Shown: positions 1,040 to 27,100 of the stretch, piece after piece
Numbering within the stretch: position 1 is the stretch's first letter
Layout of the letters: every line of letters starts with the position of its first letter
From: Escherichia coli
Lineage (GTDB): Bacteria > Pseudomonadota > Gammaproteobacteria > Enterobacterales > Enterobacteriaceae
Strand: one strand, 5' to 3'
DNA length: 64,000 bases
NCBI GenBank assembly: GCA_025544715.1
Contig: GCA_025544715.1_4109.1
Translations under genes and position numbers: made by a program
The notes under the pieces: model-generated
What the model was told of the DNA's origin: nothing
What the model saw: only the letters and a program-made list of their open reading frames with translations
Database searches by the model: none

Positions 1040-1876
1040 ATGGCTATGAATCCACTTGCTAAGTACACTAAAATTGAAGAGATCAGTACTAAGTTAGTTA
1101 CAAACGGCGTTATTCCTTATAAAGAAGGAGTTCTAGGTCCAAAAGGTGTCAAATGTGGAGTTTGTGCACGTAGTGCACGTGATGAAATGACACTTAATAC
1201 CCCCGATATGTTACTAAACGGAGATGCAGTATCCCGTGTTATTGAAAACTGTGTTCCTAATGTAATTGACGCTGATGAGTTGTATGTAAATGACGTTGAA
1301 ATGCTTCTTATTGCTATTAAAGTTGCTTCTAAAGAAGAAACATATGATATTAACGTTGTATGTCCTGAATGTGAAAAAGAAGGTCGATTTGAACGTAATC
1401 TATCATATCTTCTTGAAACTGCACAAGCATTTGAAGAAATCCCATCAATTGATTTAGATAATGGGCTACGTTTGGAATTTAGACCACTGACATGGAAAGA
1501 ATATTCATCGTTTGCTGAACGCATGTTCAGTGAGCAGCAGAAGACTAAGTTTCTTGAAACTGCTGATATTGATAAAGATGAAAAAGTAAAAATATTTTCT
1601 GAAGTATTTGAAAACATGGCTCAACTTAACTTCGATATGATTGGTGGAGTTATTGCAAAAATTATAACACCAGATGGTGATGAAGTAGTTGAAAAAGAAT
1701 TTATTAATGAATGGCTTGGACAACAATCGAAGGGAGTACTTAAACTAATTCGTGAAAAAATGGATGAAGTACTTGAAATTGGAGTATCACATAGTATGGA
1801 AGTAGAATGTGATGGATGTAATCATCAATGGGAAATTGATGGACTAAAATATGATCCTAGTCATTTTTTCGAGTAA
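1040..1876 (+). CDS. Zinc-ribbon protein with three CxxC pairs (CGVC, CPEC, CDGC); possible baseplate hub or assembly factor
   Basis: 278-aa ORF with GGAG RBS and late promoter upstream; cysteine pairs seen in translation; function by context only. Confidence 0.6.
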   Translation: MAMNPLAKYTKIEEISTKLVTNGVIPYKEGVLGPKGVKCGVCARSARDEMTLNTPDMLLNGDAVSRVIENCVPNVIDADELYVNDVEMLLIAIKVASKEETYDINVVCPECEKEGRFERNLSYLLETAQAFEEIPSIDLDNGLRLEFRPLTWKEYSSFAERMFSEQQKTKFLETADIDKDEKVKIFSEVFENMAQLNFDMIGGVIAKIITPDGDEVVEKEFINEWLGQQSKGVLKLIREKMDEVLEIGVSHSMEVECDGCNHQWEIDGLKYDPSHFFE

Positions 1877-3431: not shown

Positions 3432-5579
3432 TTAGAAAACATCATCAAGAGTTGCATATTCAACAGTACTGAAACCGTCTTCTTTAACAACTTTGAGGAT
3501 TTTTTCAGTCTTAGAAAGTAACTCTTCTCTATGGGAAATAGCATAAACGTTCTTACCACGTACAGCAGCCATATCTTGGAAGATAGACCACACACGTAGA
3601 ACACCACTTGAGTCAAGACCTTGGTCAATCATCTCATCAATGATAAGAATATTAATACTTTGGTATAATGACTCATATGTATCACGGAAAGCACAAGATA
3701 ATGCGATGTTTACCCTTGTACGCTCACCTCTACTAAGCTGTTTATAGTCAAAGTACTGCCCACTCTTCTCAATTTCAACACTCAAATCATTCAAAAACAC
3801 AACATTATGCTCAGAACCGCACATATCGATATAGTACTGAAGTCGTGTATTCAAATATGAGATATTTTGCTCAATAATACGTTTACGGACATAAGAATCC
3901 TTGTTTAAAAGTAATTTAACCAAGAAATCTTGGTGATTTGACATTTTATCAAGATTATTATAGTCGCTATAATCGATTGGTACTAAAGAATCAGTCTTCA
4001 GAGTATTAATTTGGCTAATAAATGTGTTAGTAGTCTTCAATTCACGATCTAATTGCTGTGATAATGAATTTACAGTCATTTCTAACTCTTTAACTTCATA
4101 TTTGTTTAATGTATCTGGAACTTCCATTAGTTCATATGAGTTAAGTTCATCATATGATGACATAAGTTCATTTGCATAGATGTTTATTGGTTCTTCTTCA
4201 CTCTTTCTGACCAATTCTTGAAGCTTATGTTCATGCATTTGTGCTTCCGAAAGTGTATTATAATATGTCACAGGTTTAGGTGGCATATCAAAAATCTCAA
4301 TACTATCAATTTCTTGAAGTAATGTTTCAATTTCAGAAGAAGAACTATCAATTTTAGCTTGAAGATCATTAATAGTACTTTGGATTTTGTCTTTAATTGA
4401 AGAAGTATGTTCGTTATGTTCCAATTCAGACATACAAAGTGGACATTTGCTGTTTTCAACTGTTGATAATTTGTCAATTTCAGCATTAATTGAACATTCA
4501 TATCCTTTTAAAGCTATTTTTAGTGAGTTTAGTTTTTGTTCTTTGAAACGTTTTTGGTTATTATTCTCTTTTAGAATACCCTCTAACTGTTTCCATATCT
4601 CCAACTCATTATGATTTTCCAATTCTGCACTAATATCAATAGTTTTTAGCTTATCAATGCTTAGATTTAATGCTCTTTTAGATCTTTCAAGTTCACGGTC
4701 ATATGCATCAAATTTTAAAGCCAACTCTTGTACACGGCGTTCAATTTCACCACGCTTTGCGTTATGAATAAGAGCTTTCTCTTTTATGTCAGCAGCTTCA
4801 TAGAGGTCATTAAAGTCTAAAGTTTTATATATATTCAACTCTTCATTTAACTTAGATACTCTATTATTTTTATCAATTTCAAACTGGTTTGCCTGTTCTT
4901 GTAGTGCCTCAATACTTTTTTGAATACGTTCATTACTTGCAGCTACAGTTTCATTTTTGAACTTTTCTTGTTCGGCTAAACGTTTAGTATCCTTATACAT
5001 CTCCTTTAGCATTTCAGCTTTTTCCGTCAACTGTGTTATTCCAAGAAGTTCTTCTATCATATCACGTTGTTTTTGTGTGGATAAAGCTAAGAAAGGTTCA
5101 ACGTTAGCATTCAGTACTACAATATGTTCAAATAATAATTGAGATATACCAAGAATTTCATTCAAATCTTCTTGTGTGTCTTTCTTTTCTCCCCTTGATT
5201 CATCTTCAATTTTATTATCTTTCCCTAAAGTAACAAAATTGAAATACGTGGGACTTCTCCCACGTTCAACCAAATATTGTACACCATCTTTTTCAAACTC
5301 TACAACTACTTCACAATTTTTTCCATTAGTTTTATTGACTAGGTTAGGAATTTTAATATCGTTACCAATACTTTTACCAAATAATCCAAAAACTAATCCT
5401 TGAATAATAGCACTTTTCCCTACACCATTTCGACGTCCGGTACTGTCACCACCTTCAATAACTGCATCATTATTTTGACCCAGTACTAATGAAATGTCGG
5501 AACCATTCAAGTCAATTGATTGTGGTGCATTACCAAATGAAAAGAAGTTCCTCATAGATATACGTGTAATGTTTAGCAT
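3432..5579 (-). CDS. Rad50/SbcC-like recombination nuclease ATPase subunit (T4 gp46-like)
   Basis: Walker A GRRNGVGKS, long coiled-coil middle with CPLC zinc-hook motif, ABC signature LSRGERTRV, Walker B ILIIDEM, H-loop; AGGGA RBS. Confidence 0.9.
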   Translation of the reverse strand: MLNITRISMRNFFSFGNAPQSIDLNGSDISLVLGQNNDAVIEGGDSTGRRNGVGKSAIIQGLVFGLFGKSIGNDIKIPNLVNKTNGKNCEVVVEFEKDGVQYLVERGRSPTYFNFVTLGKDNKIEDESRGEKKDTQEDLNEILGISQLLFEHIVVLNANVEPFLALSTQKQRDMIEELLGITQLTEKAEMLKEMYKDTKRLAEQEKFKNETVAASNERIQKSIEALQEQANQFEIDKNNRVSKLNEELNIYKTLDFNDLYEAADIKEKALIHNAKRGEIERRVQELALKFDAYDRELERSKRALNLSIDKLKTIDISAELENHNELEIWKQLEGILKENNNQKRFKEQKLNSLKIALKGYECSINAEIDKLSTVENSKCPLCMSELEHNEHTSSIKDKIQSTINDLQAKIDSSSSEIETLLQEIDSIEIFDMPPKPVTYYNTLSEAQMHEHKLQELVRKSEEEPINIYANELMSSYDELNSYELMEVPDTLNKYEVKELEMTVNSLSQQLDRELKTTNTFISQINTLKTDSLVPIDYSDYNNLDKMSNHQDFLVKLLLNKDSYVRKRIIEQNISYLNTRLQYYIDMCGSEHNVVFLNDLSVEIEKSGQYFDYKQLSRGERTRVNIALSCAFRDTYESLYQSINILIIDEMIDQGLDSSGVLRVWSIFQDMAAVRGKNVYAISHREELLSKTEKILKVVKEDGFSTVEYATLDDVF

Positions 5580-5587
5580 ATAGTCCC

Positions 5588-6619
5588 TTATAACGATCTG
5601 TAAATTTGGATTAGAAGATTTTTATCAAACATTGGTGAATCAATTTCCATAATTTGCTGCAAAACTATCTCATCAACTGATTCAGTACTTTCAAAACTAA
5701 CACCATCTTCGATTAATTCTGAAATACTTTGCTTGCTTGTCACAACATTAAACTCTCTAATGTTATAAAGTTTAGTAAATGTATCACGAATAAAACTAAT
5801 CTCATCAGTTGTTATTGATATATCAACTTGAACTTTTGATATTGTGTTATCTTGTAGATAATAGCTTGGATCAGTCAACAATTCAGAAAGTGTGAATGTT
5901 CTATATTTTGGTGCATTATCCCATGACTTGAAAATAGGTTCTTTGCCATGTTCAAGAATCATCACACCTCTTGCATCATCCCATGTATCGGAAAAATTAT
6001 GTGGAAAACAATTACCAGTATAAACTACACGAGTTCCTTTTGAAGTTGTTTTTGACTGTCGTTTATGAAAATGTCCACTAAAAACATACTCACATCCACC
6101 AAAAGAACCTTCTGTTTCTTTTCCATGATCAGGCATTTCTACCATCTTGTTAAGTAAGTAACCTGGTAACTCTAAGTGACCAAAAACATACTTACTTTTT
6201 AGTTGAGGTAACAACTTATATTCATCTTCAATCATAAATGGAATGAAAGTACAATCATCAAAGGTTGTAATTTCATTAATGAATTCTATATTTTCATAAA
6301 CTTGAGCCATATTGATACTTGTTATATCACGTTTGTTTTTATGATACATATCATGGTTGCCTACTAAAAAATATACTTTTTCAAAATTATCATTTAATAA
6401 TTGAAGAATTTGTAAACCATAGTTTAGTGTTTGAATATTGATATTACTTCTATTATGAAAATAATCTCCCATAAAAACACAAACTTTGATATTATTTTTT
6501 TTAGCTACATCAATCATGAATTTAATGAAGTTTAAACAATCTTCATTGTGTTGCTTGCTGTTATTCTTTAAACCTAAGTGAATATCAGTGAATGTAATTG
6601 CTTTATCAAACAGAGCCAT
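5588..6619 (-). CDS. Mre11/SbcD-like nuclease subunit (T4 gp47-like)
   Basis: Calcineurin-like phosphoesterase motifs DIHLG, GDYFH, GNHD, GHFH. Start placed at the third in-frame ATG (MALFDK...) because AAAGGAAAA RBS precedes it; the track start 6637 is an alternative. Confidence 0.9.
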   Translation of the reverse strand: MALFDKAITFTDIHLGLKNNSKQHNEDCLNFIKFMIDVAKKNNIKVCVFMGDYFHNRSNINIQTLNYGLQILQLLNDNFEKVYFLVGNHDMYHKNKRDITSINMAQVYENIEFINEITTFDDCTFIPFMIEDEYKLLPQLKSKYVFGHLELPGYLLNKMVEMPDHGKETEGSFGGCEYVFSGHFHKRQSKTTSKGTRVVYTGNCFPHNFSDTWDDARGVMILEHGKEPIFKSWDNAPKYRTFTLSELLTDPSYYLQDNTISKVQVDISITTDEISFIRDTFTKLYNIREFNVVTSKQSISELIEDGVSFESTESVDEIVLQQIMEIDSPMFDKNLLIQIYRSL

Positions 6620-7445
6620 CTTCATTTTTCCTTTCAATCATGTTCAATTCAATTTCAATTTGACGTGTATGTGATGGCGTAAAGCCATGCATTTCAAGTA
6701 AATCATCACGTATATTTCGAACATTTTTCTCACTATTCAATATAGAACGAAAACTATTGTTTACGAATGATGTATAGTAAGAGAAAGGATTTAGCTGAAC
6801 TGCTGGTTTATCTTTTTTATAAAGAATGCTCTCTTTAAAGAGAAGTGCGTTTTTAACTAATTGTATTCTTGCATCACCCATCATTTCATCTAAGTATGTA
6901 TAGTTTCTGTAATTAGATTTATGAGAGATTTCCTCAGCAAGTTTAATGAACATCTTCCCTAGTTCATTTGTAATTTTACCATGAACAGTACTGAATTCAC
7001 CAGTTTCAAGATCTCCTTTCCAATGAGAACGACATACTTCATAGAGAATTCCTTCATTATCTACAATGTAATGCTTGAATGGTTCAAAGTTAACTCTAGT
7101 GTCGGGTGGAATATGTTCATCAGTGATAACACGAATAACAACTTCATCGATTGGAACATCAGTGATAACTAAATTATTTTCATCTGCATATTCTTTAGCT
7201 TTTTTAGCACTCATACTTTCCTTTTCACGAATACTATCAAGCATTTCATTGTTTAGTCGTTTGATTCGTGCTGCTTTGGCTTTTTCAAGTAACTCAGCAG
7301 TAATTTCTGACTCATGAAAAACAATATAATCATACATACTATATGATTTGTCTAATAACCAGCAGTATGAAATCTTACTTTTTTGTATTTCACGAAGTAA
7401 ATCAGCATTATTGAGATACTTTTTACGCTTTGGCCTATTTGTCAT
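6606..7445 (-). CDS. Late-transcription sigma factor (T4 gp55-like) with a roughly 95-aa insertion
   Basis: N-terminus KYLNNADLLREIQKSK and C-terminal NPFSYYTSFVNNSFRSILNSEK resemble T4 gp55 segments (recalled); 279 aa versus 185 aa in T4; TATAAATA boxes occur upstream of late genes in the window. Confidence 0.7.
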   Translation of the reverse strand: MTNRPKRKKYLNNADLLREIQKSKISYCWLLDKSYSMYDYIVFHESEITAELLEKAKAARIKRLNNEMLDSIREKESMSAKKAKEYADENNLVITDVPIDEVVIRVITDEHIPPDTRVNFEPFKHYIVDNEGILYEVCRSHWKGDLETGEFSTVHGKITNELGKMFIKLAEEISHKSNYRNYTYLDEMMGDARIQLVKNALLFKESILYKKDKPAVQLNPFSYYTSFVNNSFRSILNSEKNVRNIRDDLLEMHGFTPSHTRQIEIELNMIERKNEDGSV

Positions 7446-7533
7446 TGTATTTTACTCTCCATGTTTAAATCCAATAGGTACAATCCTTGTACCATCAATG
7501 TTATTATAGCACCAAAAAGCATTTTGTCCCACG

Positions 7534-7541
7534 TATAAATA
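7534..7541 (+). promoter_or_regulatory. T4-type late promoter box TATAAATA
   Basis: Exact TATAAATA 36 nt upstream of ATG 7577 and inside the 5-prime extension of track ORF 7487..8308, which argues for the downstream start. Confidence 0.55.
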
Positions 7542-7576
7542 CATCAAATGTTCCCTTATTATGGAGAATCAAAAAG

Positions 7577-8308
7577 ATGATTGATCGTAGAATTCGATTA
7601 CGACCTAAAGCCGCAGGTGCTAACTATGTATATGGTGATTTCGGAGATAGCTCCGAACCAACACTACTTTCGTTTCTGCGTCCAACTAATGGGTTGGTTT
7701 GGACTGTAACACCAACAATTACTGAACAAAGGTCAATTCAGTATGAAACACAGTCTCCTATACATACCAACAGTAACTATAACAACTATAAGAACACTAC
7801 TAATACAGTTTTCACGATTCAGGGTGAATTTTATGCAAATACAGCAGCAGAAGCTATGTATGCATTGGCATGTGTTCATTTTATACGTTCTGTTTCATTG
7901 ATGGATTTTGGTAGACAAGCTGCTTCGGCTAATAACCCCGAACTCGCAATTGCGGGTGCACCACCACCAATCTTACTTCTAAGTGGATATGGTCGTTATA
8001 CATATAATGATATTCCTGTTATTTTAAAATCTTATAATTTTACTTACCCAAATGATGTTTCTTATATTCAAGTTCCGTTGAATAGTAGCGATAGTACTTT
8101 TAATTTATCCGACATGGATAGTAGAAAATTCTTCGAACAACTTAGAAGTACTGGGTACATGAATCCACAAGATGAAGTTTGGGTTCCACAAAAAATTTCA
8201 GTTATGTTACAACTTGAAGAACAACCTACATCTGATTATATGACTAAAACGTTCAACCTAAATGCATTTAAACGTGGTGAACTATTACGTAAAGGAGGAT
8301 TTATTTAA
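7577..8308 (+). CDS. Baseplate or tail structural protein (first gene of late baseplate operon)
   Basis: ORF with GGAGAA RBS 10 nt upstream of ATG 7577; late promoter upstream; function by position only. Confidence 0.6.
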   Translation: MIDRRIRLRPKAAGANYVYGDFGDSSEPTLLSFLRPTNGLVWTVTPTITEQRSIQYETQSPIHTNSNYNNYKNTTNTVFTIQGEFYANTAAEAMYALACVHFIRSVSLMDFGRQAASANNPELAIAGAPPPILLLSGYGRYTYNDIPVILKSYNFTYPNDVSYIQVPLNSSDSTFNLSDMDSRKFFEQLRSTGYMNPQDEVWVPQKISVMLQLEEQPTSDYMTKTFNLNAFKRGELLRKGGFI

Positions 8309-8633: not shown

Positions 8634-10883
8634 ATGGCAGATTTACGAAGTACAGTTGATAATTTTCAAAATGATATTACAAGTATTACTGGTAAGGCTA
8701 AAACCACCACATCTAATGCACTTGATAGTTTGAAAGCTACAGCAAATACATTACAAAATGATGTAAAAACTATTACAAAAAATAATTACAAAGCAAATGT
8801 AAGTAATGTAGTATCATTACCAAAACAAAGTGCTAGTGTCGATCAAGTTTATGAAGATCTAGATTTAAGTCAGTTTGTAATACCGTATGACAATAAATTA
8901 TTGAAATATGATAATCCAACATGGCACTTTTGTTTATTTGCCTTAGATAAAGATGATTTTAAAAACTTTTGGCTTTACCCAGATGCAGAAGTGCAACGAC
9001 ATGTAATATCAGAAAGTGGTGTTACTGGCAAATATAATATCACTAGTGTACAAATGACACAAGCTGGCCCGTCAACACCAGGAATGACAACAAACTATTG
9101 CTTTAATACAGCAGTACTTAATATGTCTGAAAATAATAGTATGAGTCTATATGACGAATTAATTTCGTTAAGTAACAAACTTAGATATCATAAATTCATG
9201 GACTTGCCATTGATCTTGGAATTAAAGTTTATTGGCTTTAATAAAAATGGAATACCTGAAATTATCCCAGAAACAACAAGACGCTGGTCAGTTAAAATTA
9301 ATAGTGTTACTGCAAGTGCTTCACAAAGTGGTAGTACTATGATGTATACTATGAACTTAGTTCATAATAGAGCAGCTTTAGTTGATAACATTGAATGGAC
9401 ATTAAAAGAACCATTCAATTGTACTGCTGAAAACTTTGGTGACTTCTGTTTTGATTTAGAAGATAAATTAAATCAGATGGCTGACCAACAATATGGTTAT
9501 CTTAGATATAAATTTGGTGAATTATCCGAAGGTAAATTTTTCGAATTTAAAGTAGCTCCTGATTTGCAAGATTTGTTTATAAACTATGATTCTAAACAAA
9601 TGGCAGAGGCTGGAACAACTAAAAGTGGTGCACAAGGTTCTAAAAACTTTTCATGGAACCCAAGTACTCCTATATCTCGAATTATTGATGACGTTATTGA
9701 TACATGTACTGTACAAGCAGATGATAGTACTAGTGTGCGTCAATTTGTAAACATTATACCAGTTAAACAATACGTTGGTTTTGATAATTATCGTAATACT
9801 TCTGTTTATAAAGTAATTTTTTACATTGTTAGATTTAAAATAGGTGATATTGTTCATGAATCTGATTTACAACCTGAAAATTTCACATTTGAGTACTTTT
9901 TTGAGAACGCAGAAAAATACGTAGATCCTAATGATCAAAAACCAAAAATAAACATGAAAACTTATAATTATCAATTTAGTGGGCTTAATAGTGAGATACT
10001 TGATTTGGATTTGAAATTTGATCAGCAATTTTTCGTAGCCACTACACGTAACCCTGGTCCGATACAAGATGTAGCGAACCATGCAGGTACACATACATCC
10101 CAAGAACTCAATATTCAAGGTGTACAATACAATAGTATACCAGACGCATGGGCAAAAACAAGTGATTTACGTGTAACTCGTGATTTAGGAGGGATGTTAA
10201 CACAAGCCCAACAACAATTGTTAACTGAAGTTGAAACTTTAGCAAAAAATCAAATGCAGGTTGGTAACGCAGAAGAACAAGACCGTTATAATAACTATCA
10301 AGTCAATGTTTTACCTCAATATATTGAAGATTATGTAACCACTTATGAAGAAAACGATGGCGGTACTGATGGTGTTGGTCACCGTTATGGTGAAGTGTTC
10401 ACAATGCCAACCGAAGCAACTAACAATGAAACAACGTTATCCGCTTCGTTAAACGATAACAGCAGCACATATGAAATGGATAGACGTAAAATACGTGACA
10501 ACTATTACAATAGACCTTTTTTGTGTAAACTCGATATGCGTGTAGTAGGCGACCCGTACTGGTTAGGGTGGAGTGATTACTCTTACTTACAATATCTAGA
10601 ACAAGTAATTAATGGTGAAGATATGGAAATTAACCCAGATGATTATCATGTAGCAAATTATATAACATCTGAAGCGTATCTATTACTAAAATTACAACCA
10701 GTAATATCAATAAATGATAACACTGGTGTTTTGGATATTAATACACCAACTACATTTAACCAAACAATTTATCGTGTTAATAAAATTGTTCATGATTTTG
10801 GTGCAGGTGGTTCTTTTACACAACAAATTCAAGCTGCAATTGTAATTCGTGCACTCAAACGTCACGATAGTATAGTTGATTAA
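8634..10883 (+). CDS. Putative baseplate hub protein (gp27/gpD position)
   Basis: 749-aa ORF immediately upstream of the spike gene; TGGAG RBS; assignment is positional. Confidence 0.55.
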   Translation: MADLRSTVDNFQNDITSITGKAKTTTSNALDSLKATANTLQNDVKTITKNNYKANVSNVVSLPKQSASVDQVYEDLDLSQFVIPYDNKLLKYDNPTWHFCLFALDKDDFKNFWLYPDAEVQRHVISESGVTGKYNITSVQMTQAGPSTPGMTTNYCFNTAVLNMSENNSMSLYDELISLSNKLRYHKFMDLPLILELKFIGFNKNGIPEIIPETTRRWSVKINSVTASASQSGSTMMYTMNLVHNRAALVDNIEWTLKEPFNCTAENFGDFCFDLEDKLNQMADQQYGYLRYKFGELSEGKFFEFKVAPDLQDLFINYDSKQMAEAGTTKSGAQGSKNFSWNPSTPISRIIDDVIDTCTVQADDSTSVRQFVNIIPVKQYVGFDNYRNTSVYKVIFYIVRFKIGDIVHESDLQPENFTFEYFFENAEKYVDPNDQKPKINMKTYNYQFSGLNSEILDLDLKFDQQFFVATTRNPGPIQDVANHAGTHTSQELNIQGVQYNSIPDAWAKTSDLRVTRDLGGMLTQAQQQLLTEVETLAKNQMQVGNAEEQDRYNNYQVNVLPQYIEDYVTTYEENDGGTDGVGHRYGEVFTMPTEATNNETTLSASLNDNSSTYEMDRRKIRDNYYNRPFLCKLDMRVVGDPYWLGWSDYSYLQYLEQVINGEDMEINPDDYHVANYITSEAYLLLKLQPVISINDNTGVLDINTPTTFNQTIYRVNKIVHDFGAGGSFTQQIQAAIVIRALKRHDSIVD

Positions 10884-10896
10884 GGAATAAAATATT

Positions 10897-13560
10897 ATGG
10901 CAGATACAAGTAAAAAGTATGCACAACAGCAGTTGGGTCGTTTTGACCCATCTTATCCGCAGTTAGCAACTGTTATGGATAACAGAGATCCAACTAAATC
11001 AGGAAAACTGAAAGTTTGGATACAAGGTTCACAGAGTGATAAAAACTCAAAAGAATCATGGATAGAAGCATCTTACATGTCTCCTTTTGCTGGCAAAACA
11101 CCAGGCATTCCAAGTGCTGATGCATATGGTCAATATCCAAAAGGATACGGTTTTTGGGCAGTACCACCAGATGTAGGGTGTACAGTTGTTGTAATTTTTG
11201 CACAAGCCCGTACATTCCAAGCATATTGGATTGGTTGTGTATATGACCAGCGTATGAATACTATGGTTCCAGGTATGGCAACTGAAGTAAGTAATTATGG
11301 TGGAACTGATATGCCACTTCCTGTTACTGACTATGATCGTAACACTATCACTACCGATATGCAAGACAAATATGCTAACGTTCCAATCATCGCAGGTCTT
11401 AAAAAGCAAAACCTTTTATATGACGAAGAAGCTGGGTTGGCGAATCGTAGTAGTACTCGACAAACCACAAGTACTGTATATGGGATGTCATCACCGCGTG
11501 GAAATAGTTTCATTATTGATGATGGATATACTGAAGAGGAATTAACTGCACCCACATGGGATCAAGACCCAGATGGATATCAAGATACGCAATTTAATAA
11601 CCCAGTAAACGATACCCGTGTTGGTTCTCGTAAAAATGAAGGTGTTGTAATAAAAACACGTAGTGGTGCACAACTTCTTTTATCAGAAGCAACTGGTGAT
11701 GTTCTTTTAATTAACCGTGACGGTACTGCACGTATTAAATTCACTGGTGAAGGTGATATTGACATGCATTGTGACAAGAATATCAATATTCGTGCAGGAC
11801 AAGATATTAATATTACGGCTGGACGTTCATACAACATTGAAACCGGACAAGATTTCAATGCACGCGTTGGTGCAAATACTAAATTAGATCTAATTGGTGC
11901 TCTTGATGCAAAAGTTGGTGGACAAGTGGTGGTTAATTCAGGTGCTGACCTTCGTTTAGTTACGGCTGCATCATTGCGTATGCAAAGTGGTAGCAGTACT
12001 GATATTACTGCTGGTTCAAATGCGTCTATTTCTGCTTCTACATCTGCAAACTTAATTGGTTCATCTTCAGCAATTGTTAGTGGTGGAGGTCAAACATTAA
12101 CAGTTAATAGTGGTGGTAATAGCGGTACTGCTGAATTTACTGCACCAAATTTCAGAACACCATCTGCTGGTCTTAATGAACACATTCATGATATTGCCGC
12201 TTGGGTTAATGCTGAAAATCATGGTAGTTATGTTGAACCACCAAGACAAGGTGGGGGGAGTGGCTCAAGTGAATCACCAGTTCAACCCCAGCCAGCAAAC
12301 GATGTATCACCAGAACTACCAGTTGCACAAGATACAGAAGCTGTTCAGTTTGTAAACTATACATCAGAAACTGAACAAGTGCAATCTCAAGATTTAATGA
12401 CATCTGACCCTGGAATGACTGGATATAGTATTACATATGAAGGTTTACATATGTTCATGCCATGTAGTGGTACTATTCGCCAATATGGTTATTGGGGGAA
12501 AGGTGTTCCAACACAAAGTGGTGGGAAGTCAGATCGTTCTGGATGGGAAATACAATGTAAAGGTGACATAGTTGCACCCGATGGTGGTGTAATAGTAATT
12601 ACTAATGGTGCACTGTTAATACAACATAAGTCAGGATATAAATCTGTATTTTATAATATTCAATCTGATTTATTAAACAAAGATGTTGTTCAAAAAGGAC
12701 AAGTTGTTGGTAAAGCAAATGGTGTTATACAGTTTGAAATACGTGTTACATCAGCTAACGTGCTTGGTTTTAGCGGTTCAGTTGATCCTGGTCTATTTTA
12801 TGCATCTCAAACTGGTACTGGTTCTGACGCAGCCAATAAAACATTAATTGCAGGAAAAGCAACCAATCAATCTGCACCTCAAGCAGTAGTGCAACCTTCT
12901 GTTGATAGTGATGAATTAGTAGTTACTACAAAAATTAAAACAATTGGTACAGGTTATTCACAACGTGGTTCACGACATGTTCCTCGTCGAAGAAGAACAC
13001 AAAGAAGTGGTGTTTCAACTACGCCAGTTGAGCAACCAACTTATAATATAGGTAATGTTGATAAAACAGCCATAGATTGGAAAGTTGTTCCAGGTGATGC
13101 TCAGTTTATTTCTGAATTAAAAGAATATGAGGGTACATTACAATATCAACAAGCAAAGGGATATTATCGTAATGGTAAGTTCTGGCGTTATTTAGACAGT
13201 CGTGGATATCCAACTATTGGTTACGGTCACTTAATTGTTAGCGGTGAAAACTTCTCTGATGGAATAACTGAACAACAAGCAAATGATATGTTAGTTCGTG
13301 ATAGTAGTAAAGCAATTTATGATGCCAAATCAATTTATGCTTCATATAACATGAAAACTCCTTATCTTGCTCAACAAGTACTATGCCAAATGGTATTTCA
13401 GATGGGTAAAGGTGGTGTATTGAAATTTAAAACTATGTTATCAGAAATGGCAAAAGGTAATTATAAACAAGCAGCGGCACAAATTCGTAATTCTGCTTGG
13501 TATCGCCAAACCACACGCCGTGCGGAGTTAATGGCTCGTCGTTTGGAGGCATGTCAATAA
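10897..13560 (+). CDS. Baseplate central spike (gp5-like): OB-fold, beta-helix, M23-like module, C-terminal T4-lysozyme-like domain
   Basis: N-terminal LATVMDNRDPTKSGKLKVWIQG resembles the gp5/VgrG OB-fold; repetitive NINIRAGQDINITAG... beta-helix; EHIHD after the helix; C-terminal MVFQMGKGGVLKF...WYRQTTRRAELMARRLE closely parallels T4 lysozyme (recalled). Confidence 0.85.
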   Translation: MADTSKKYAQQQLGRFDPSYPQLATVMDNRDPTKSGKLKVWIQGSQSDKNSKESWIEASYMSPFAGKTPGIPSADAYGQYPKGYGFWAVPPDVGCTVVVIFAQARTFQAYWIGCVYDQRMNTMVPGMATEVSNYGGTDMPLPVTDYDRNTITTDMQDKYANVPIIAGLKKQNLLYDEEAGLANRSSTRQTTSTVYGMSSPRGNSFIIDDGYTEEELTAPTWDQDPDGYQDTQFNNPVNDTRVGSRKNEGVVIKTRSGAQLLLSEATGDVLLINRDGTARIKFTGEGDIDMHCDKNINIRAGQDINITAGRSYNIETGQDFNARVGANTKLDLIGALDAKVGGQVVVNSGADLRLVTAASLRMQSGSSTDITAGSNASISASTSANLIGSSSAIVSGGGQTLTVNSGGNSGTAEFTAPNFRTPSAGLNEHIHDIAAWVNAENHGSYVEPPRQGGGSGSSESPVQPQPANDVSPELPVAQDTEAVQFVNYTSETEQVQSQDLMTSDPGMTGYSITYEGLHMFMPCSGTIRQYGYWGKGVPTQSGGKSDRSGWEIQCKGDIVAPDGGVIVITNGALLIQHKSGYKSVFYNIQSDLLNKDVVQKGQVVGKANGVIQFEIRVTSANVLGFSGSVDPGLFYASQTGTGSDAANKTLIAGKATNQSAPQAVVQPSVDSDELVVTTKIKTIGTGYSQRGSRHVPRRRRTQRSGVSTTPVEQPTYNIGNVDKTAIDWKVVPGDAQFISELKEYEGTLQYQQAKGYYRNGKFWRYLDSRGYPTIGYGHLIVSGENFSDGITEQQANDMLVRDSSKAIYDAKSIYASYNMKTPYLAQQVLCQMVFQMGKGGVLKFKTMLSEMAKGNYKQAAAQIRNSAWYRQTTRRAELMARRLEACQ

Positions 13561-13572
13561 ATATTTTAGCAC

Positions 13573-13580
13573 TATAAATA
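13573..13580 (+). promoter_or_regulatory. T4-type late promoter box TATAAATA
   Basis: Exact TATAAATA 17 nt upstream of ATG 13597 (lysozyme gene). Confidence 0.55.
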
Positions 13581-13596
13581 AAACGAGGATATCTTT

Positions 13597-14085
13597 ATGA
13601 GTAAATGGGAAATTAAAAATACAGATGAGCAATTTTTTAAGGAAATTAAAGAATTTGAAGGAACTATTGCTTATCAGAAAAAACTTGGTTATTTTAAAAA
13701 TGATAAGTTTTGGGTATATAAAGACAGTTTAGGTCTTGATACTATTGGTTATGGTCATCTAGTTCTTCCTGGTGAAAATTTCAAGAATGGTTTGACCGAA
13801 GCTCAAGCTGACCAACTTCTTCTCAAAGATGCTCAAACTGCGTACAATGATGCAAAATCAATTTATGAACAATTCGGTATGACCGCACCAGTACAGGTAC
13901 AACGTGTATTATGGTTAATGGTATTCCAAATGGGAAAAACCAAAGTTTTGAAATTTAAAAAAGCAATGACCGCATTAGGTAAAGCTGATTACAAAACTGC
14001 TGGTAAAGAATTGCGTGATAGTACATGGTATAAACAAACCACTTCACGAGCGGAAAAGATGGCACGTATCGTTGAATCCGTATAA
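13597..14085 (+). CDS. T4 lysozyme-like endolysin (GH24 muramidase), paralog of the spike C-terminal domain
   Basis: EFEG catalytic Glu context, DTIGYGHL, MVFQMGKTKVLKFKK, WYKQTTSRAEKMARIVE; alignable by eye to the spike C-terminus across about 150 aa. Confidence 0.9.
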   Translation: MSKWEIKNTDEQFFKEIKEFEGTIAYQKKLGYFKNDKFWVYKDSLGLDTIGYGHLVLPGENFKNGLTEAQADQLLLKDAQTAYNDAKSIYEQFGMTAPVQVQRVLWLMVFQMGKTKVLKFKKAMTALGKADYKTAGKELRDSTWYKQTTSRAEKMARIVESV

Positions 14086-14496: not shown

Positions 14497-14501
14497 TTAT
14501 A

Positions 14502-14530
14502 AAAGCACTCTTCGGAGTGCTTTTCTTTTT
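14502..14530 (+). terminator. Rho-independent terminator
   Basis: GCACTC-ttcg-GAGTGC followed by TTTTCTTTTT. Confidence 0.7.
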
Positions 14531-14597
14531 GAATAAATATTTCTATATATAATTCCCAGTACTGAACTAGTACTTTACTGATTTAAAGGAATAAATT

Positions 14598-18090: not shown

Positions 18091-18138
18091 ATATCATAAA
18101 TAAATCAAATGAATGAACGAATTATATGGAGTCCAAAA

Positions 18139-21100
18139 ATGACTAATAATTTTAAGTTTCAACCTACACAGATGGCTGAAGCAGTACAGAAGAAGCTTTT
18201 TATTAAAAGATTGCCTGAGTGGATGCAAGGCTTAGAAGATATTCAAAAAGTCAGTGATGATGTTATTCAACAATGGTTTAATCCGGCTGAAAACGAATTA
18301 GTTGACGGCTATATTGGTGATATGGGTTCTCCTGCCGCTGCTGGTAATATCTTCTTACATGAAAGTACTGTAGCACGTCAACTTTATCAGTTGTCCACTG
18401 CTTACGTCTCAAAAAATGATGATTCGACAATTCGTTCAATTCAATTTTATGATGATCTAGTTGGATACATGAATCATTATGGAGCACTAACCGATAATGA
18501 AAGCCGTTTGTTCAACGGTAAGTTTTATGCATGGACTCCAGCTATTAACCCAAATAAAATGAACAATTTTAGCTCATATCTTTGGGACACTAAAAACTCT
18601 TATAATATTACTTCACCTGATTACATTGTAATGGAACGTGGAGCACTTAATGGTAATACATGGTCACTACAAAACTTTTGGTATACTTTAGGTGAAACTT
18701 TAGAAGATGGTTCAATTTTAACTGAAGAATTAATGCAAGATTCTCGCTTTATTCGTGCCCGTGCTCCAATTATCGAATATAATAAAAATATTGAACTAAT
18801 TAACTACGGTACAAAATTCCGTGGAACTGTCGATCTATTCTCAGATATAATCAAACCTGAAGATATCGTACAAAAAGATATTAATAGTGGCATCCGTATT
18901 GATGGTATTATTCCACAAGATGGTATGCGTATTCTATTCACCAGTATTGGTAACAATGGTGAAAATAATAGAATTTATAATGTATATGTCAAAAAAATGC
19001 AGGATGGTACTCGTGTTTATGGTTTGGCATTAGATCCAGAAGAAGAAACCGAATCACGCCCAAGTGGTGAACCTCAAGATGGTGATGTTGTTCTAATCAC
19101 CAAAGGTAATGAGTATGGTAACAGTTCTATGTACTGGAATGGTTCTTTGTGGGTTCGTGCACAATCAAAAACTAGTGTTAACGTATTCCCTAAATTCCAA
19201 CTTTATGATCGTAATGGTATCAAACTTGACAACAGTACTACATATCCATCCAGTAACTTCAACGGTTCACAATTGTTTGGATTTAAAATAAATTACAACT
19301 ATGCAACTGATAGTGTATATGGATATAACATCGAACTTGGTGATTACAATTATTACATGTATGAAAACTTTTTACAATCACAACGTTATACCTATGACCA
19401 TCTTGGAATTGAAGTTGAAATTGATGGTTTATACTATTATAATATTATTGATGAAAATAATGAAATGAATCTCCAAACTGATTGGGTTCGTTCAGAAGAG
19501 TACTCTAAACAATATGTAAAACAAACACCACAAGTACAACGTACTGACATGTATCGTGTGTTCAGCACTGTTTATGATATGGAAGTTTTTAAAGAACCTG
19601 TTGATGGTATGTATGCATATGTTGTTGAAGTTGATAGAACCTATCAGTACTATAAAGCAGACCGCGAAACTTATCTAGACTGGCATCCAATCACTGGTGA
19701 TGGTGTTCAGATTGTAAAATATGACCACACATTCGAATTAGCACAAAAAGTTTTAGATAATGATTCTGACATAATTGAAGTTGTTGTTGATGGTGTTGAT
19801 GTATCAAAATATACCAAAAATGTATCAAAAGGTCAAGTTCAAAGTATCACCTTAGATAGCACTGTAGATTTGGATGAAGATTCAGTTATTCAAATTAGAA
19901 CTTATAGCAGTACTGTAACTCCTAATAAAGAATTAGGTGCATATGAAGTTCCAATTAACTTACAAAATAACCCATACAATTCCAATATTATATACATTAA
20001 CCAAGGAGACTACACTCTACATTTTCAGGATATTATTCAAAAGAACATTACAAGTGGTTCATCTGACGATTTTAATGATTATGAAGAACGTTTAGCGAAA
20101 GGATTGGTTAATAATGGTGTTGGCACTAAAATTATCCAAAATGAAGCATCTATGCTTCCATTGATGGCACATACTGCAAATGAAGACATTGATTTGTTTG
20201 AAGCAACTATGTTTATGCAATCTGAATATTTTAGATTTATTAATAAGTTTAATACTCAAATGCTTCGTATGTATGATGAAAATCCATCAGATTTTTTGCA
20301 AAATAGTGCTGCAAATATTGTTGATTCTATTTTAACTACTATCAATATGGGGCGTGATAGTTCATTCCCATTCTATTATGATAATGTTGGGAGTACTTCT
20401 GGATTTATTCGTGCATTTATACCACCAACACCACAGTTCTTGGGTATTCTACAAGCATATGTTCCAGAAAAAGCGACATTCCTTACTGCTGGTAGTAAAC
20501 CAAGCTGTTATAACATCAGTCATACTGGTATTATTTCGAAAGCATATCGTGTCATCAATGGTGTTGATAAAATGGATGATGTTGTATATGAATTAGAAAA
20601 TAGAATTTTTAATAGTATCGATAATAAATTCAAAGATGTTGATTATGTTCCAGTTTTGAACAGTGATGATCTTTTTCCTACACCATATTTCACAAAAACC
20701 GAATATAGTGCAGAAGAGAAACAAACGCTATTGTTACGTGGTTATATTAACTTTACTGCATCTAATGGTATCAGTAATAGTACACATGATTATGATCCTA
20801 ATAATTGGAGAACTTGGAACTATACCGGAACCTATTATGTAGTTAATGGTCAAAGTACTGAAATTCCTGCTCGTGGTTCATGGCGTGCAATTTATACTGA
20901 CCAATATGGTACATATCGCCCTGCAACACATCCGTGGGAAATGTTTGGCTTTTCACAGCGTCCAACTTGGTGGAACCAAGAATATGAACCAACTGCTGTT
21001 CAAGTTGGTGAGCGTGATAGTGATGTGGTATATGTATATGAAGCACTTGTTATGAATGAACAAGGAGATTTAGTTCCTAGTGGTCTATGGGATATCGACG

Positions 21101-24100
21101 GCACTATCGGAGATAGTAGTACTGGTACTATTTTGTCTGGTGATCGCCGTGGACAGTATGACAAATATAAAAGATTTGGTGTACAGCCATTTAAAATCAC
21201 AAAAACTGGTAATAAAACATCTTCCGGTATTGATATTTGTGTTGTTGAATATATTGCACCTGAAATTTTAGGTTTAGTGTCTGGTTCTTTAAATCATAGA
21301 GCAGAACCTTGGGCATATGGTGACATGGGTGACATGGAATTTACATACATGAACACTACATTGTTTGCATATGACCAAATGCTACTTTTGTATAAAGCTA
21401 AACCTGCACAATTTGCTAACTATTTTTGGGATACCCGAAATGACAATTTAAAAGAAGTATTCACTGATGGTTCACAATTCCTTTATGGTGATACACGTAA
21501 GCGTATTAATTTTGATAAAAACACTGTAGTTCATGGTGAAAATAACACAAGAACAATTGGTTATCAAATGTTTGTTAGTGATTATTTGATGTATCAAAAT
21601 AAAAACATTACAACCAAATATGGGGATGTAGTTCGTTCTTCTTATATAAATGTTGGTCATAAAATTGGTGGTTTTACTAAAGCAGATCAGCTAACATTCA
21701 ATGCTAAATCATTTGGTCTTATTTCACAAGAAAACCAAACTATTGGTCTTGTTCGCTCGAATAATATTCGTGATGAACAAATGAGTGCTATCAAAATTAC
21801 TTGGAATGGTAGTGCATATCAGATTGATGGATATGATTTAGTTGGTGCTAAATTCAAATATAAACTGCCAGTGAAAAATGGTAGAAAAGTAACTCTTAAA
21901 TTAGAAAACCGCAATGTTGTTCATTATAACGAATGGAAATCTGAAGCTTCCATTGAATATGGTAAAGTTTTTAATAGTTACCAAGAAGTTTATACTTTTA
22001 TTTGTGGTTATGGTGAATATCTTAAAGAACATGGCTGGATTTTTGAAGATGTAAATGATAGTGGTGCTCAACAAGATTGGAACACTATTGCTAAAGATTT
22101 TGTGATCTGGAGTCAGAATTCTCTGGTAACGGGTGAATTTATTTCTTGTACACCAAGTGCAGCAAATGCTAAATTTGGTGCAGACTTTGGTTCAGTTCAA
22201 TCTATTACACAAAATAACGGTGGTGTGTGGTCATTACTTGATGATAACAACCAAGGTATACGTCAATATGAAATTGAAACTTCTCGTATTGGTAATATCT
22301 TTACTGTTAGAACTTTAGAATCCAATAAACGTATAGCATTAATTCGTTTAAGTTTGTGTTCATATGAACATGCTGTTATTTTTGATGATAAGACTATTTT
22401 TGGTGATTATATCTATCAGCCAACTTATGGTTCTATTCAAGAATTAATTAAAATGTATGGCTACATTACTGGTTCATGGACTGGTCGTCTACAAGCTCCT
22501 GGATTTATTATCTTGGAAGCTGGAACACTACCATCATTTGAAAAATTAGTGTCGGATTTCCAACATTATTATGATAGTGAAACTCCAGTAAGTGATGTAC
22601 AATTACAAGAGTTGTCAAACCATTTGATTGGTTATCAATCTCGTGATTATCTACAGCGTATGATTAGTAGTGATGTTAGTCGTGTTGATTTCTATAAAGG
22701 ATTCATTCATGATAAAGGTACTAACCAAGTTTTAGAACGTGTACTTCGTGTTTCTAAATCATATGACACTGATGAATATAAAGCATTACAAGAATGGGCA
22801 TTTAAAATTGGTACATATGGTAATATTGATGGTAAGAAAAATCTTCAATTTAAATTGATTAATGACCAATTTAAACAACAACCTCAAATGGTTTCTTTTG
22901 ATGTAAATGCAACTTCAAATGGTAATGGTAATCATATTGTATACTTTGGTGAGCAGGGTAAAGATCCTCGTTGGATTACACGTCCAAATGGTAAGTTCTC
23001 ATTCCCAATGCGTAGTGGAAGAAGTGAAAATATCCAACTTCCAGATATTGGTCCAGTAACATTGGATGAAGTATCGTACACAACAAAAGATTTCAGTACT
23101 GCATATAATGACCGCATAACTTATACTAATGGTAAAGGTGAAAATCCTGAATCTGTGTGGATGTTTAAAGACGGTAATGGCTTGTGGAACATTTTTGAAT
23201 TGGTTGATACTAATGTGCAAATGGTTTCTATAACACCTATTGAAAATACCGATGTGTATGCTGAACAATTTTGTAAAGTAACTTTAACTGATAATGTACC
23301 ACTTGAAGATGGTGATTATTATTATTTTGTTGATGAAACTAACTTTATGCCAGATACTTTAACAGTAGAAAGTCAATATTATACTGCTGGTTCTGATCCT
23401 AAAGTTATGGTAGTTCCATTTGACACTTCTATTGATATTGAATTTACTGATCCAGATACACGCCCACGTTTGTATCGTTATGTATCACGTTTTGTCAGTA
23501 CTGATGAACGTCAAGCTTACATTGACAAGAAATATAGTTTTAAAGCACCACAAAGTACTTTATTTGATCGTCCAACAACATATGACGAACGTACTAACAT
23601 TACTGAGCTATATCTAAACGTTTATGACCCAATTAATGGTGTTATTCCAGGTGCGGCTATGCAAAACGTAACATATACTTCACCAGTTGATCCTGCACAG
23701 TATAATAGTAATGGAGAGTTAATCCAAGCTTGGGGTGCTGATAAAGTTGGTCAAGTATGGTGGAACACTAGCACTGCATTTTATTTGGATTATACTCGTG
23801 CAATTTATGACGCAGACGGTAATGTTGACATTGATGCAACAAATGAATACAAACGTTACAACTGGGGTCGTTTATTACCACATAGTACAATTGATGTGTT
23901 AGAGTGGGTTTGTTCACCAGTTGAGCCATATAACTGGGACAAATACTGTAAAGATGTTGCTAAGAAAAACAAAAATAATACTATGTATCTACCAAGTGGA
24001 ACTGCACTTGAAGATAATTATAGTACATTTTTGGAATATGATAGTTCAACTGATAGTTATGTGACAAAATACTATTTCTGGGTACGTGATACAATTTATG

Positions 24101-27100
24101 TACCACCACTACATACCAGAACAAAATCATGTACTGACATTGCTCGTATTATTAAAGATCCAACACAGCTAAACATTCCTTGGTTCGCTCCAATCAATGA
24201 AAACTCGTTTATTCTTAGTAATATGCAATTTAAAGTTAATGATGATACCAGTATTTTAACTGTTTCTTATTACATGGATAGTACTGAAGTTGTTAAACAT
24301 GACCAGTATCAACTATGTAAAGAAGGTGACAGCTATAACTTTAACCCACTAATTTGGGATTCAATGTGGAACTCACTAATTGGTCAAGAAACAACTGAAT
24401 CAGGTTCTGTGATTAATTTATTATATCCAGATGTTGATAACGGTTTAGGATCAAACAAAACTTGGTTCCAAAATGTTATAGAAGCTCGTAGAAACTTTGT
24501 AGAAAGTGCTAATAATTATTATAGGTCACAAAACATAACCACTAATAGTGTTGTTATGGAAGATGTGTTTAATGTTAAAACCACTGAAGTTAACCCGAAT
24601 GAAGTTTCTTTCCGTGTATTGTCTTACAATAATGAATTAGTTATTGCAGTTGAAAGTGATAAATTTAAAGAAAATGACGCTGTTATTTTAAGTACTAGTG
24701 GATATCTACCAAATCCATTAACTTCTAGTGCTGTTTATTTTATTCACTTCGACGAAAATGGATATATTCAGTTAATGAATAGTCCAGCAAACGCGGGTAG
24801 TGTTGTTACTATAACGTTAGAGAACAAAGGTGAGGGTCAACATAAAATGATTAAACAATCTGATTATGTTGAATCACTAGGAACTTCATTGGACATGACT
24901 CAGTACTGGTCATATGCTGATTGGTATGATGTTGGGTATGATAGTAACACGACTTATACTCAAGAGTCAAGCTTAGAAGATGCTAATACTAAAAACTACC
25001 AAGTTGGTGATATTATCAGAGTTACCGATAGTGAAAACATTTGGACATTGTATATTAAATCACAATCACGCGATTCAATTTATTGGAAAGCGATTGGTCG
25101 TGAAAACAGTACAGTTGAACTCAATGATATGCTTTACGCAGATTATAGTGTTCATAATGATAATGGTTCACTAAGCAATCGTGAAATCAACGTTCGTAAA
25201 GCACTCGCTTTACTCAAAAATTCTTTCGATTTACATCAAAGCGAAATTGTTTTTGATATGGTCAAATATGTACATGTTGAACAAAGTGTTGTGGATTGGG
25301 TATTTAAAACATCATATATCTATATTGTTGGTTTGGAACAATCATTAGTTCAAAACTATTCAAACGATAATTTGATTAATCAAATTGTTGAATATTTTGA
25401 AGAAGTTAAACCTTATAGAACTAAAATTCGTTCACAAATAGAGCAAAAGACATCTGATGATGATTTAATAAAAGGTCTGTGTAATGATTTAGATCCTAAT
25501 GGATATATTTTCGTTGACGGTTCTTGGGTCAAAACTGAAAAAGATATTTGGGATTATGAGTACGCTCAATTTAATGAAATTACCCAAAAATGGGAACAGG
25601 TAGGTTCACTACCAAGCGATTTCATTACACCAAATAGAAGATTCCAAGAAATTGATATTATTATGCATTACGATAACATTCAATGTAAACCAAATGCAGA
25701 TTTGGCAAGCATAAATGAATTAGTAAGTGTTAATAACAAATATCAATCCAATGAAAAGGATGCTGTTAGTAACTATGAATTACAACGTTATATATATTCT
25801 TTCCCAGAATATAGTGAAGAAACTTTCGATCTTCTTATTGCTTATCAAATGCAAATCTACTATCCAGAATTGGATGTAACACTAGGAACAGCATATGGCG
25901 TTAACCAGTGGTATAAAGACCATGCGGAAGATTTAGAAGCAACTGATGAATTTACTGCTACATTGGAGCGTGTTTATAAAGAATCAACGCAGAACGATAT
26001 GTTTACTGACCTTAGACAATATGTTCAGTATAACACATTGGCAAACCGTTTGAAACTTTATAAAGATATAAGTGATGAGAAAATTCACGATGAAGTTGGT
26101 TGTGGATTTAGTGGACTTACTTATAATGACAATCCTAGTACTAGACTTCCATTAGGCTTTTCTTCTAGTAATGATTATAACTATGGATATTTTGAAATAA
26201 GCAGTGAACTGTATCAAAAATATATTTCATTAATTAAAGATAAAAATCCTGACGCATCAGACTATGAAGTAAAAGTTAAACTTGAAGTTGAGTATGGTGT
26301 ATATGTTTATCGTTATGATGAAGTCGGTGGTGATACCCGTTTCTATACTGATGCTATTCACGTATTAGCAGGTATGAGAGGGTTATTCGACAAAGACGCT
26401 ACTGATAAGTACGAAAAAGCTGAAGAGATTCTTAGTAAAACCCCAATTGATATCTATGCAATTACAATGATTCCAAGAAAATATGTTTACTTAAATGTTA
26501 ACGGTGTATATCAAAGTATACCTGATGAACAAAGTATTGATGATTTCATGGAAGATTATTTTATCACAAATGGTGAAATGATTGAACTAGCTGAAATAAA
26601 TCTAGATGATTTACCACTAGATCAAAATAACCCAATGTATTCAGATTATCAATATATACTTGATAGTATTACTGAAGCTAAGTACTTCAATGATATGAAT
26701 GCATTTGATAACCTAGCATTAGAATCTCAAACTTCTTCAATAAAATGGGAAGTTAAAGATGATGAAGTTGATCCTTATATTGTGGATATATCTGATATAA
26801 ACCCTTCTGGGCGTGATGTTGGTCAAATTAGATTTACAGTTGATGGATATGGGTTTGACAATGTATCTCTTGTACAACTACGTGATAACAGCAGATATCA
26901 AACTGAAGGTATGGCAATTATCAATCCATATAAACATACAGAAGCAATTGTTAGTATTCCTTCATATGCTAAGATTGAAAATGATATTAATAAAACAACA
27001 TCGAAGTTTGATGAAAAATATTTCTATCGTGTGAGATCTATTAATAGCTTAACTGAAGCAGAAATAGTTGACAATGACCTATCTGATGGTGATAAGGTGA

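Follow-up and report, generated by a model that had tools for sequence, protein, structure and literature searches.

How can the needle of a contractile tail, which is currently thought to need a narrow and rigid tip, carry bulky enzymes beyond its apex, and could a catalytically dead LytM domain serve a virus as a regulator of hydrolases, as such domains do in bacteria? Both questions are raised by two adjacent genes in a 64,000-nucleotide stretch of DNA (the window) deposited under Escherichia coli (assembly GCA_025544715.1, contig GCA_025544715.1_4109.1), the first of which encodes a tail spike with about 450 residues per chain beyond a histidine-cage motif, and the second a free lysozyme. 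The spike open reading frame (ORF) spans 10897..13560 on the plus strand (887 residues) and that of the lysozyme 13597..14085 on the same strand (162 residues); the ORF list gives exactly the coordinates used in a first-pass annotation made from the letters alone. Genes 587 and 586 of Escherichia phage 121Q (an Asteriusvirus) match this 3.2-kb stretch with 97.6% DNA identity, equal length and equal gene order, and, judged by sequence, the spike and the free lysozyme are their orthologs. We infer that the 887-residue protein forms, as a trimer, the central spike in the contractile tail of a 121Q-like jumbo coliphage. PHROG 13211 covers it end to end (887/887), and its gene lies in a baseplate block that encodes, in order, a gp53-like protein, a 749-residue virion protein, the spike, the lysozyme, gp25-like and gp6-like proteins and a 3333-residue virion protein, so that the baseplate context expected of a central spike is found in the synteny with gp53-, gp25- and gp6-like genes. 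Moreover, the spike orthologs phAPEC6 gp241 (PMC7247149) and CBB_240 (PMC5259590) were found in virions by published mass spectrometry. As a whole, the locus is probably best read as a spike needle with tethered dead LytM and lysozyme domains, plus a free lysozyme expressed late. The elements of the two genes are the following.

10951..11244, plus strand: OB-fold of gp5/VgrG type, spike residues 19-116 (Pfam Phage_base_V, phmmer to VgrG)
11245..11643, plus strand: most conserved segment, spike residues 117-249 (conservation map, AlphaFold2)
11644..12141, plus strand: triple-stranded beta-helix needle of VgrG/gp5C type, spike residues 250-415 (Pfam DUF2345, profile A3, AlphaFold2)
12142..12243, plus strand: apex-like element, spike residues 416-449, with the HxH motif H429/H431 at codons 12181-12189 (conservation)
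12244..12429, plus strand: linker 1, Gly/Ser/Pro-rich, spike residues 450-511 (predicted local distance difference test, pLDDT, below 50; low conservation)
12430..12861, plus strand: predicted degenerate LytM/M23-fold domain, spike residues 512-655 (profile search, AlphaFold2, Foldseek)
12862..13071, plus strand: linker 2, spike residues 656-725 (pLDDT below 50, one predicted strand at 675-682)
13072..13560, plus strand: GH24 T4-type lysozyme domain, spike residues 726-887 plus stop codon (Pfam PF00959, PDB matches)
13597..14085, plus strand: free-standing 162-residue GH24 lysozyme (Pfam PF00959, paralogy to the spike C-terminus)

The first-pass annotation had proposed that the enzymatic modules follow the OB-fold and the beta-helix, and this order is borne out by Pfam matches that all exceed their cutoffs: Phage_base_V (PF04717) at spike residues 23-116 (29.8 bits, cutoff 23.8, E 7.8e-7), the DUF2345 beta-helix (PF10106) at 278-329 (34.9 bits, cutoff 30.7) and Phage_lysozyme (PF00959) at 765-882 (44.5 bits, cutoff 22.3, E 2.3e-11). 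The N-terminus also aligns weakly with the OB region of VgrG (phmmer, E 0.009), and this fold would seat the spike on the hub or tube. A profile of residues 236-452 (profile A3) retrieved VgrG spikes from the PDB at E-values of 1e-5 to 2e-3, together with a phage 'central spike' and gp5C/phiKZ gp164 chimeras, although its best VgrG1 score is inflated by a His-tag that aligns to the HxH motif. The full-length AlphaFold2 monomer (mean pLDDT 67.5, predicted template modelling score, pTM, 0.30) contains four confident blocks, namely the OB-fold, the helix at 250-410 (pLDDT of the helix region 75-84) and residues 512-655 and 720-887, separated by low-confidence stretches at 116-198, 450-511 and 660-718. 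Between the OB-fold and the helix, residues 117-249 show the highest mean identity to the window protein of all regions (0.69) and many invariant residues, as counted, like all conservation figures below, in 43 spike homologs with 37-93% identity. This segment has no family match, and its first part (residues 116-198) stays below a pLDDT of 50 in the monomer; its folding probably requires the trimer or contact with the hub. In T4 gp5, the equivalent position is occupied by the lysozyme domain.

Just after the last strands of the helix, and some 20 residues before the Gly/Ser/Pro linker, lies the motif EHIHD (428-432), pointed out earlier as a possible metal-binding apex, whose H429 and H431 are invariant in 43/43 homologs. 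In work on the P2 spike, such an HxH is described as forming the iron-binding histidine cage of the apex domain and as the one feature that all spikes conserve; its usual place is close to the C-terminal end, and a PAAR-type tip is present where it is missing (10.1101/2023.02.25.529910, PMC12407873). The importance of this apex is illustrated by P2, whose plating efficiency is halved when the apex is unfolded (10.1101/2023.02.25.529910). The iron-loaded spikes P2 gpV and phi92 gp138 share with our protein, known from sequence, the succession of OB-fold, beta-helix and HxH motif, but their apex ends the protein about 12 residues from the HxH, whereas 456 residues follow here, at odds with the near-C-terminal location of an Apex domain of P2 gpV type. 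An apex reading is nevertheless reasonable because the motif sits after the helix and matches the published signature, and it is plausible that H429 and H431 form a putative iron histidine cage that is internal instead of C-terminal. The Pfam scan of the apex segment returned nothing, and no PAAR-like tip protein was found among the 17 neighbouring proteins scanned, a set that does not exhaust the genome.

Beyond this element, the chain enters the first of two linkers, both probably flexible and each of about 60 residues. Linker 1 contains the Gly/Ser/Pro run noticed from the letters (GGGSGSS, 452-458) and has the lowest conservation, except for an island around A467/D469 (P-ANDV, residues 465-469, window 12289-12303). 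Linker 2 has a conserved island of its own, ELVV..K..TIG.GYSQRGS...P (residues 673-696, window 12913-12984), in which V675, G691 and P696 are invariant and which ends at the basic stretch that the annotation had listed as RRRR (PRRRR, 696-700). As a guess, these islands could be short docking or processing motifs, that of linker 2 being either a docking strand or a cleavage site.

Between the linkers, the annotation had seen a module with M23-like topology but without the HxxxD and HxH residues, and had suggested a search against Peptidase_M23. Residues 495-650 alone gave 21.2 bits in Pfam (E 3.4e-4), below the cutoff of 28.7. A 25-sequence profile of residues 500-645 retrieved from the PDB LasA (6e-7), SpoIIQ (1.2e-6), zoocin A and DipM (4e-5) and EnvC (0.04); several homologs also carry a precomputed PF01551 match. 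The AlphaFold2 model of the domain from the same 25-sequence alignment (pLDDT 88, pTM 0.81) was matched by Foldseek to many M23/LytM structures with probability 1.00 and template modelling (TM) scores of 0.6-0.7. The first PDB matches are two LytM domains without catalytic activity, those of EnvC (4bh5, E 2e-6, TM-scores 0.62/0.69) and DipM (7qrl), closely followed by active M23 enzymes. When the catalytic positions were mapped via the LasA and SpoIIQ alignments, the HxxxD pair fell on R547/E551, the catalytic His on N587 and the HxH of M23 on V610/Q612. Only 4/43 homologs keep a His at the first HxxxD position and 2/43 an Asp at the second, while a His at the catalytic position or at either M23 HxH position occurs in 0/43. 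Since the catalytic His positions are lost in all 43, the domain is predicted to be a degenerate, catalytically dead LytM throughout the spike family. A homolog that would represent an active M23 ancestor was sought and rejected, the catalytic set being kept in 0/43. In a profile search of 1.84 billion representatives, this LytM subfamily occurred only in spikes of about 870-985 residues (7 clusters at E<=1e-30), followed by a gap from E 1e-31 to 1e-17 and then by generic M23 proteins. An M23 fold devoid of Zn ligands or catalytic histidines is shared with EnvC, NlpD, DipM and SpoIIQ, with EnvC and DipM ranked first by structure and SpoIIQ and DipM scoring high in the sequence-profile search; those four, however, are bacterial periplasmic or septal regulators, whereas the spike LytM is embedded between two linkers.

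The chain ends in the T4-lysozyme-like domain that had been announced from the letters. Its PDB matches are a gp5-type spike lysozyme and T4 lysozyme structures (about 1e-11 to 1e-8), and its pLDDT in the model is 82-91. D767/T773 of the spike and D43/T49 of the free copy align with D20/T26 of T4 lysozyme (Y18-K-D20...T26), both in an alignment on PDB chains and in another on a T4 lysozyme sequence entered by hand. Moreover, E745-G746 in the spike and E20-G21 in the free copy fit the catalytic E-G motif (the equivalent of E11 in T4 lysozyme); the profile alignments stop short of these glutamates because a family-specific insertion of about 13 residues intervenes. Of the 43 homologs, 42 retain E745, 42 retain D767 and 29 retain T773, and the fused GH24 domain looks like an intact, working lysozyme by prediction. 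The free protein, of 18.8 kDa, matches Phage_lysozyme at residues 40-147 (37 bits, cutoff 22.3), and its sequence contains no signal, transmembrane or N-terminal hydrophobic segment.

Are both lysozymes true paralogs? The pairwise alignment suggested in the first-pass annotation left little doubt, as BLASTP aligned the free copy with spike residues 728-885 at 52% identity over 158 residues, with no gaps and an E-value of 7e-57. The nearest outside relatives, 145-150-residue GH24 proteins of enterobacterial genomes that are probably prophage lysozymes, are 44-52% identical and contain the same insertion. In 95-100 of 100 neighbour-joining bootstraps, both kinds of copy, fused and free, grouped together apart from this outgroup. 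The outcome that would have spoken against the annotation, either no M23 or lysozyme match in the C-terminal half or two lysozymes that are not related, did not occur, given the profile matches and this level of identity. The duplication and fusion that it had put forward are likewise upheld, but as an old event: all 72 free homologs are nearer to the free copy of the window, and 82 of 87 fused domains nearer to its fused copy, and this grouping by copy type indicates an ancient duplication that predates the radiation of these phages. A recent tandem duplication was considered and discarded, with orthologs of each copy closer to each other than paralogs are. As to which copy is ancestral, the neighbour-joining trees gave no answer, with a single fused clade in only 45-47 of 100 replicates and the free copies as a grade. 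Among distant relatives, L002 keeps the free gene after the spike, and L001 lacks a free gene there.

The free lysozyme seems to be transcribed as a late gene of its own, from either of two motifs in front of its start codon.

13557..13563, plus strand: ATAAATA overlapping the spike stop codon, 40 nucleotides from the lysozyme ATG, a spacing typical of the family
13573..13580, plus strand: exact TATAAATA box, 16 nucleotides before the ATG, with the motif start 23 nucleotides from it

The annotation had assigned to this gene its own exact TATAAATA box; the box is indeed present, but at an atypically short distance, and the site with family-typical spacing, listed for CBB, is the one at 13557-13563. 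In this regard, ATAAATA occurs 13 times in the window, 11 of them within 60 nucleotides upstream of a gene on the same strand (999, 2885, 7535, 13557, 13574, 18096, 36154 on the minus strand, 36183, 49090, and 60705 and 61230, both minus), and in most of these 11 the motif starts 35-43 nucleotides from the ATG. The longer TATAAATA is found 3 times against 10.6 expected by chance from shuffled sequence, and is hence depleted. Both motifs before the free lysozyme are conserved in 6 Asteriusviruses. The late motif ATAAATA has been reported for CBB and GAP32, and the late-promoter list of CBB includes the stop-codon-overlapping site as Porf_239, 39 nucleotides from the ATG (PMC5259590). The pattern agrees with late promoters of T4 type that act together with a gp55-like sigma factor, for which the window has a candidate at 6606..7445 (minus strand), assigned by orthology to 121Q gene 591, annotated as a late sigma factor. 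The spike gene has no ATAAATA motif of its own and is probably read from the promoter at 7535.

Put together, these elements suggest how the protein may work. Its N-terminal half would be an ordinary gp5/VgrG needle, an OB-fold followed by a beta-helix closed by the HxH histidine cage, from which each of the three chains would continue through a linker of about 60 residues into the dead LytM, and through a second one into the GH24 lysozyme. Contraction of the sheath would drive the needle through the outer membrane and bring three tethered lysozymes into the periplasm, where they would open the peptidoglycan locally for the tail tube, while the dead LytM would have a binding or regulatory role and no catalytic one. 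With a late promoter to itself, the free paralog would give a soluble and active muramidase that is no detectable component of the virion. In this model, iron binding, the geometry of tethered delivery, the role of LytM and that of the free copy in lysis are all inferred. Delivery of three tethered lysozymes is the simplest model because contraction is known to deliver spikes into the periplasm, as described for gpV of P2 (PMC12407873).

A similar division of labour exists in T4, where gp5 and the lysozyme e also combine OB-fold, GH24 lysozyme and beta-helix with a free paralogous lysozyme encoded elsewhere, and where gp25, gp6 and gp53 have counterparts among the baseplate partners described here. 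In T4, however, the lysozyme domain is placed between OB-fold and helix, and a separate PAAR-like protein (gp5.4) forms the tip, whereas the spike of the window has its lysozyme at the C-terminus, beyond the helix and the HxH, and contains a dead LytM domain in addition. Evolved VgrG proteins of the type VI secretion system, such as VgrG-3 of Vibrio cholerae, which has a C-terminal peptidoglycan hydrolase, are alike in that an OB-fold and beta-helix spike delivers C-terminal enzymatic cargo to the target periplasm, and the beta-helix profile of the spike does match VgrG structures. VgrG, on the other hand, has a gp27-like N-terminal half and a PAAR cap, whereas this spike, a phage virion protein, lacks the gp27-like part and has an HxH where PAAR would bind. 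The tail-knob protein gp13 of phi29 carries at the tail tip a lysozyme-type domain and then an active M23, joined by a linker. The same kinds of domain and a linker are thus found in both tail-tip proteins, although gp13 has the order lysozyme to M23, a catalytic M23 and no beta-helical spike.

Several points weigh against the model of a needle with tethered enzymes. The full-length AlphaFold2 monomer, with its low pTM, offers no usable inter-domain geometry for placing the C-terminal domains; profile A3 found in the PDB no sequence homology to the apex domains of gpV or phi92 gp138, and the apex region has a pLDDT of only about 50-58 in the monomer. In fibers, HxH cages are also found internally, where they act as register clamps (10.1101/2023.02.25.529910, PMC12407873), and three appendages of about 450 residues at the tip of a needle conflict with the importance of a narrow, sharp apex. 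It is conceivable that the HxH of the spike is such an internal clamp, with a trimeric structure that continues beyond it and no tip at this point. Cages along fibers lie away from the tip, as would suit a motif followed by 456 residues, and the absent homology to known apex domains agrees with this; the location directly after the last beta-helix strands, with a Gly/Ser/Pro segment predicted to be disordered within about 20 residues, speaks against it, and we regard a clamp as unlikely. The C-terminal half, moreover, could be absent from mature particles, the CBB supplements reporting presence or absence only. Maturation cleavage in linker 1 or 2, for instance near ELVV...QRGS...PRRRR, would release a needle with a free, sharp HxH apex, and the LytM-lysozyme piece would stay attached non-covalently or leave on infection. 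Release of the enzymatic tail by proteolysis had been suggested from the outset, and T4 gp5 is a precedent, being cut between lysozyme and beta-helix during assembly. Conserved islands in both low-confidence linkers are unusual for pure spacers, P696 is invariant with basic residues next to it, and HxH apex domains are normally C-terminal. Even so, distant homologs do not keep the dibasic run, and phAPEC6 lists the protein at its full 95.9 kDa (although this is a calculated and not a gel mass). Cleavage seems to us unlikely, and the uncut needle with tethered domains preferable.

The role of the dead LytM admits a bolder proposal, in which it would act like EnvC, NlpD or DipM as an activator, whether of the adjacent lysozyme, of the free paralog or of host amidases or lytic transglycosylases in the periplasm. 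Its top structural matches, the LytM domains of EnvC and DipM, both activate autolysins without being catalytic themselves. Throughout the family the catalytic residues have disappeared, whereas the fold persists, as do many surface-independent residues (W550, G580, H577 and R616 among them), and the subfamily was found in these spikes only. Active M23 enzymes, however, reach nearly the same Foldseek E-values as EnvC and DipM, and dead LytM domains can be plain protein-protein adaptors, as in SpoIIQ; we give this activator role little credence. Still less probable is the joint proposal that the internal HxH is an iron apex, the LytM-lysozyme arms are tip cargo, and the dead LytM is a switch of EnvC/DipM type for its own lysozyme, the free paralog or host autolysins after delivery to the periplasm, which, if true, would be a phage-borne hijack of the bacterial mechanism of LytM activation. 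With regard to the free lysozyme, it could be a virion or assembly component docked on the spike (e.g., on LytM or a linker island), raising the dose of lysozyme per particle. The gene is inside the baseplate block, between those of the spike and the gp25-like protein, it has late-promoter motifs like structural genes, and at least one distant relative, L002, has both genes side by side; L001, in which there is no free gene at this position, points the other way. The absence of the free lysozyme from virion mass spectrometry is not decisive here because small, low-copy proteins can escape detection, and yet this proposal appears to us very improbable. The free copy most probably acts in lysis, by analogy with T4 lysozyme e relative to gp5. 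Its ortholog in UE-S1, LysUE1, was purified and lyses E. coli permeabilised with EDTA, and the forward primer used for it matches the window from 13597 onward (PMC12805682). Counting against that role, this phage group has another predicted endolysin, a transmembrane-LysM-lysozyme protein (CBB_187, or 121Q gp532; PMC5259590).

The history of this architecture is not a new one. In 2013, gp078 of RaK2 (886 residues) was ranked among the largest baseplate lysozymes and its domain composition called 'very unusual', the helix coming first and the lysozyme being C-terminal, and the similarity among the lysozymes of RaK2 was noted (PMC3622015). The 2017 work on CBB assigned to CBB_240 a gp5 OB-fold and a C-terminal lysozyme, unlike T4 gp5, as well as, in the centre, a possible M23 domain (E 6.5e-4) that other RaK2-like phages share; CBB_239 was recognised as a T4-type lysozyme, and of these neighbours only the gp25-like protein and the spike CBB_240, not CBB_239, were confirmed as structural (PMC5259590). 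The virion proteome of phAPEC6 followed in 2020, in which gp241 (95.9 kDa, 7 peptides) is present and the products of the next two genes are not listed (PMC7247149), and in 2025 the UE-S1 ortholog of the free lysozyme was reported as muralytic (PMC12805682); it is already under exploration as an enzybiotic. The orthologs of 121Q, RaK2, CBB, phAPEC6 and UE-S1 do not differ materially from the pair of the window. The architecture is therefore already described for this phage group, with the pair annotated in 121Q, and little here is new because the spike belongs with orthologs that have been annotated and discussed before. The additions made here are modest, namely the predicted family-wide loss of the M23 catalytic residues and the invariant, internal HxH; neither the dead LytM nor the internal HxH is mentioned in the parts of the RaK2, CBB, phAPEC6 and UE-S1 reports on which we draw.

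The surroundings of the pair offer some further observations. Directly upstream of the spike, at 8634-10883 (plus strand), the gene of the 749-residue virion protein lies where one might look for that of a gp27-like hub; searches for such an identity gave zero Pfam or PDB sequence matches. Further upstream, the ORF list starts the gene at 7487-8308 with a TTG at 7487, whereas the 121Q annotation starts it at an ATG equivalent to 7577. Its PHROG match runs from residue 29 on and the ATAAATA lies at 7535, which, together with the 121Q start, makes 7577 the probable true one. Diverging from the baseplate genes, the minus-strand region 3432-7445 encodes an SbcCD-like nuclease pair and then the gp55-like late sigma factor. 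No tRNAs were found within the window.

Downstream, 121Q has a 765-nucleotide HNH endonuclease gene (gene 584, noted as group I intron-associated) between the gp25-like and gp6-like genes. Where L003 has positions 12601-13438, the window has at 14497-14597 only an intergenic gap of about 100 nucleotides, with an ATAAATA at 14533 inside it, and the endonuclease gene is, on this comparison, a mobile-element presence/absence difference between the window and its closest relative 121Q. The 3333-residue ORF (18109-28110, plus strand) lies directly 3' of the gp6-like gene and has an ATAAATA 13 nucleotides before its ATG. In phAPEC6, gp245 (382 kDa), encoded two genes after gp244, is part of the virion proteome, and its predicted mass matches the product of this ORF, of which it is likely the ortholog. 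A NUDIX hydrolase gene is located amid structural genes at 33393-33857 (plus strand), and at the left end of the window a protein of the T4_baseplate family (PF12322) is encoded at 1040-1876 (plus strand), preceded by a TATAAATA box at 998.

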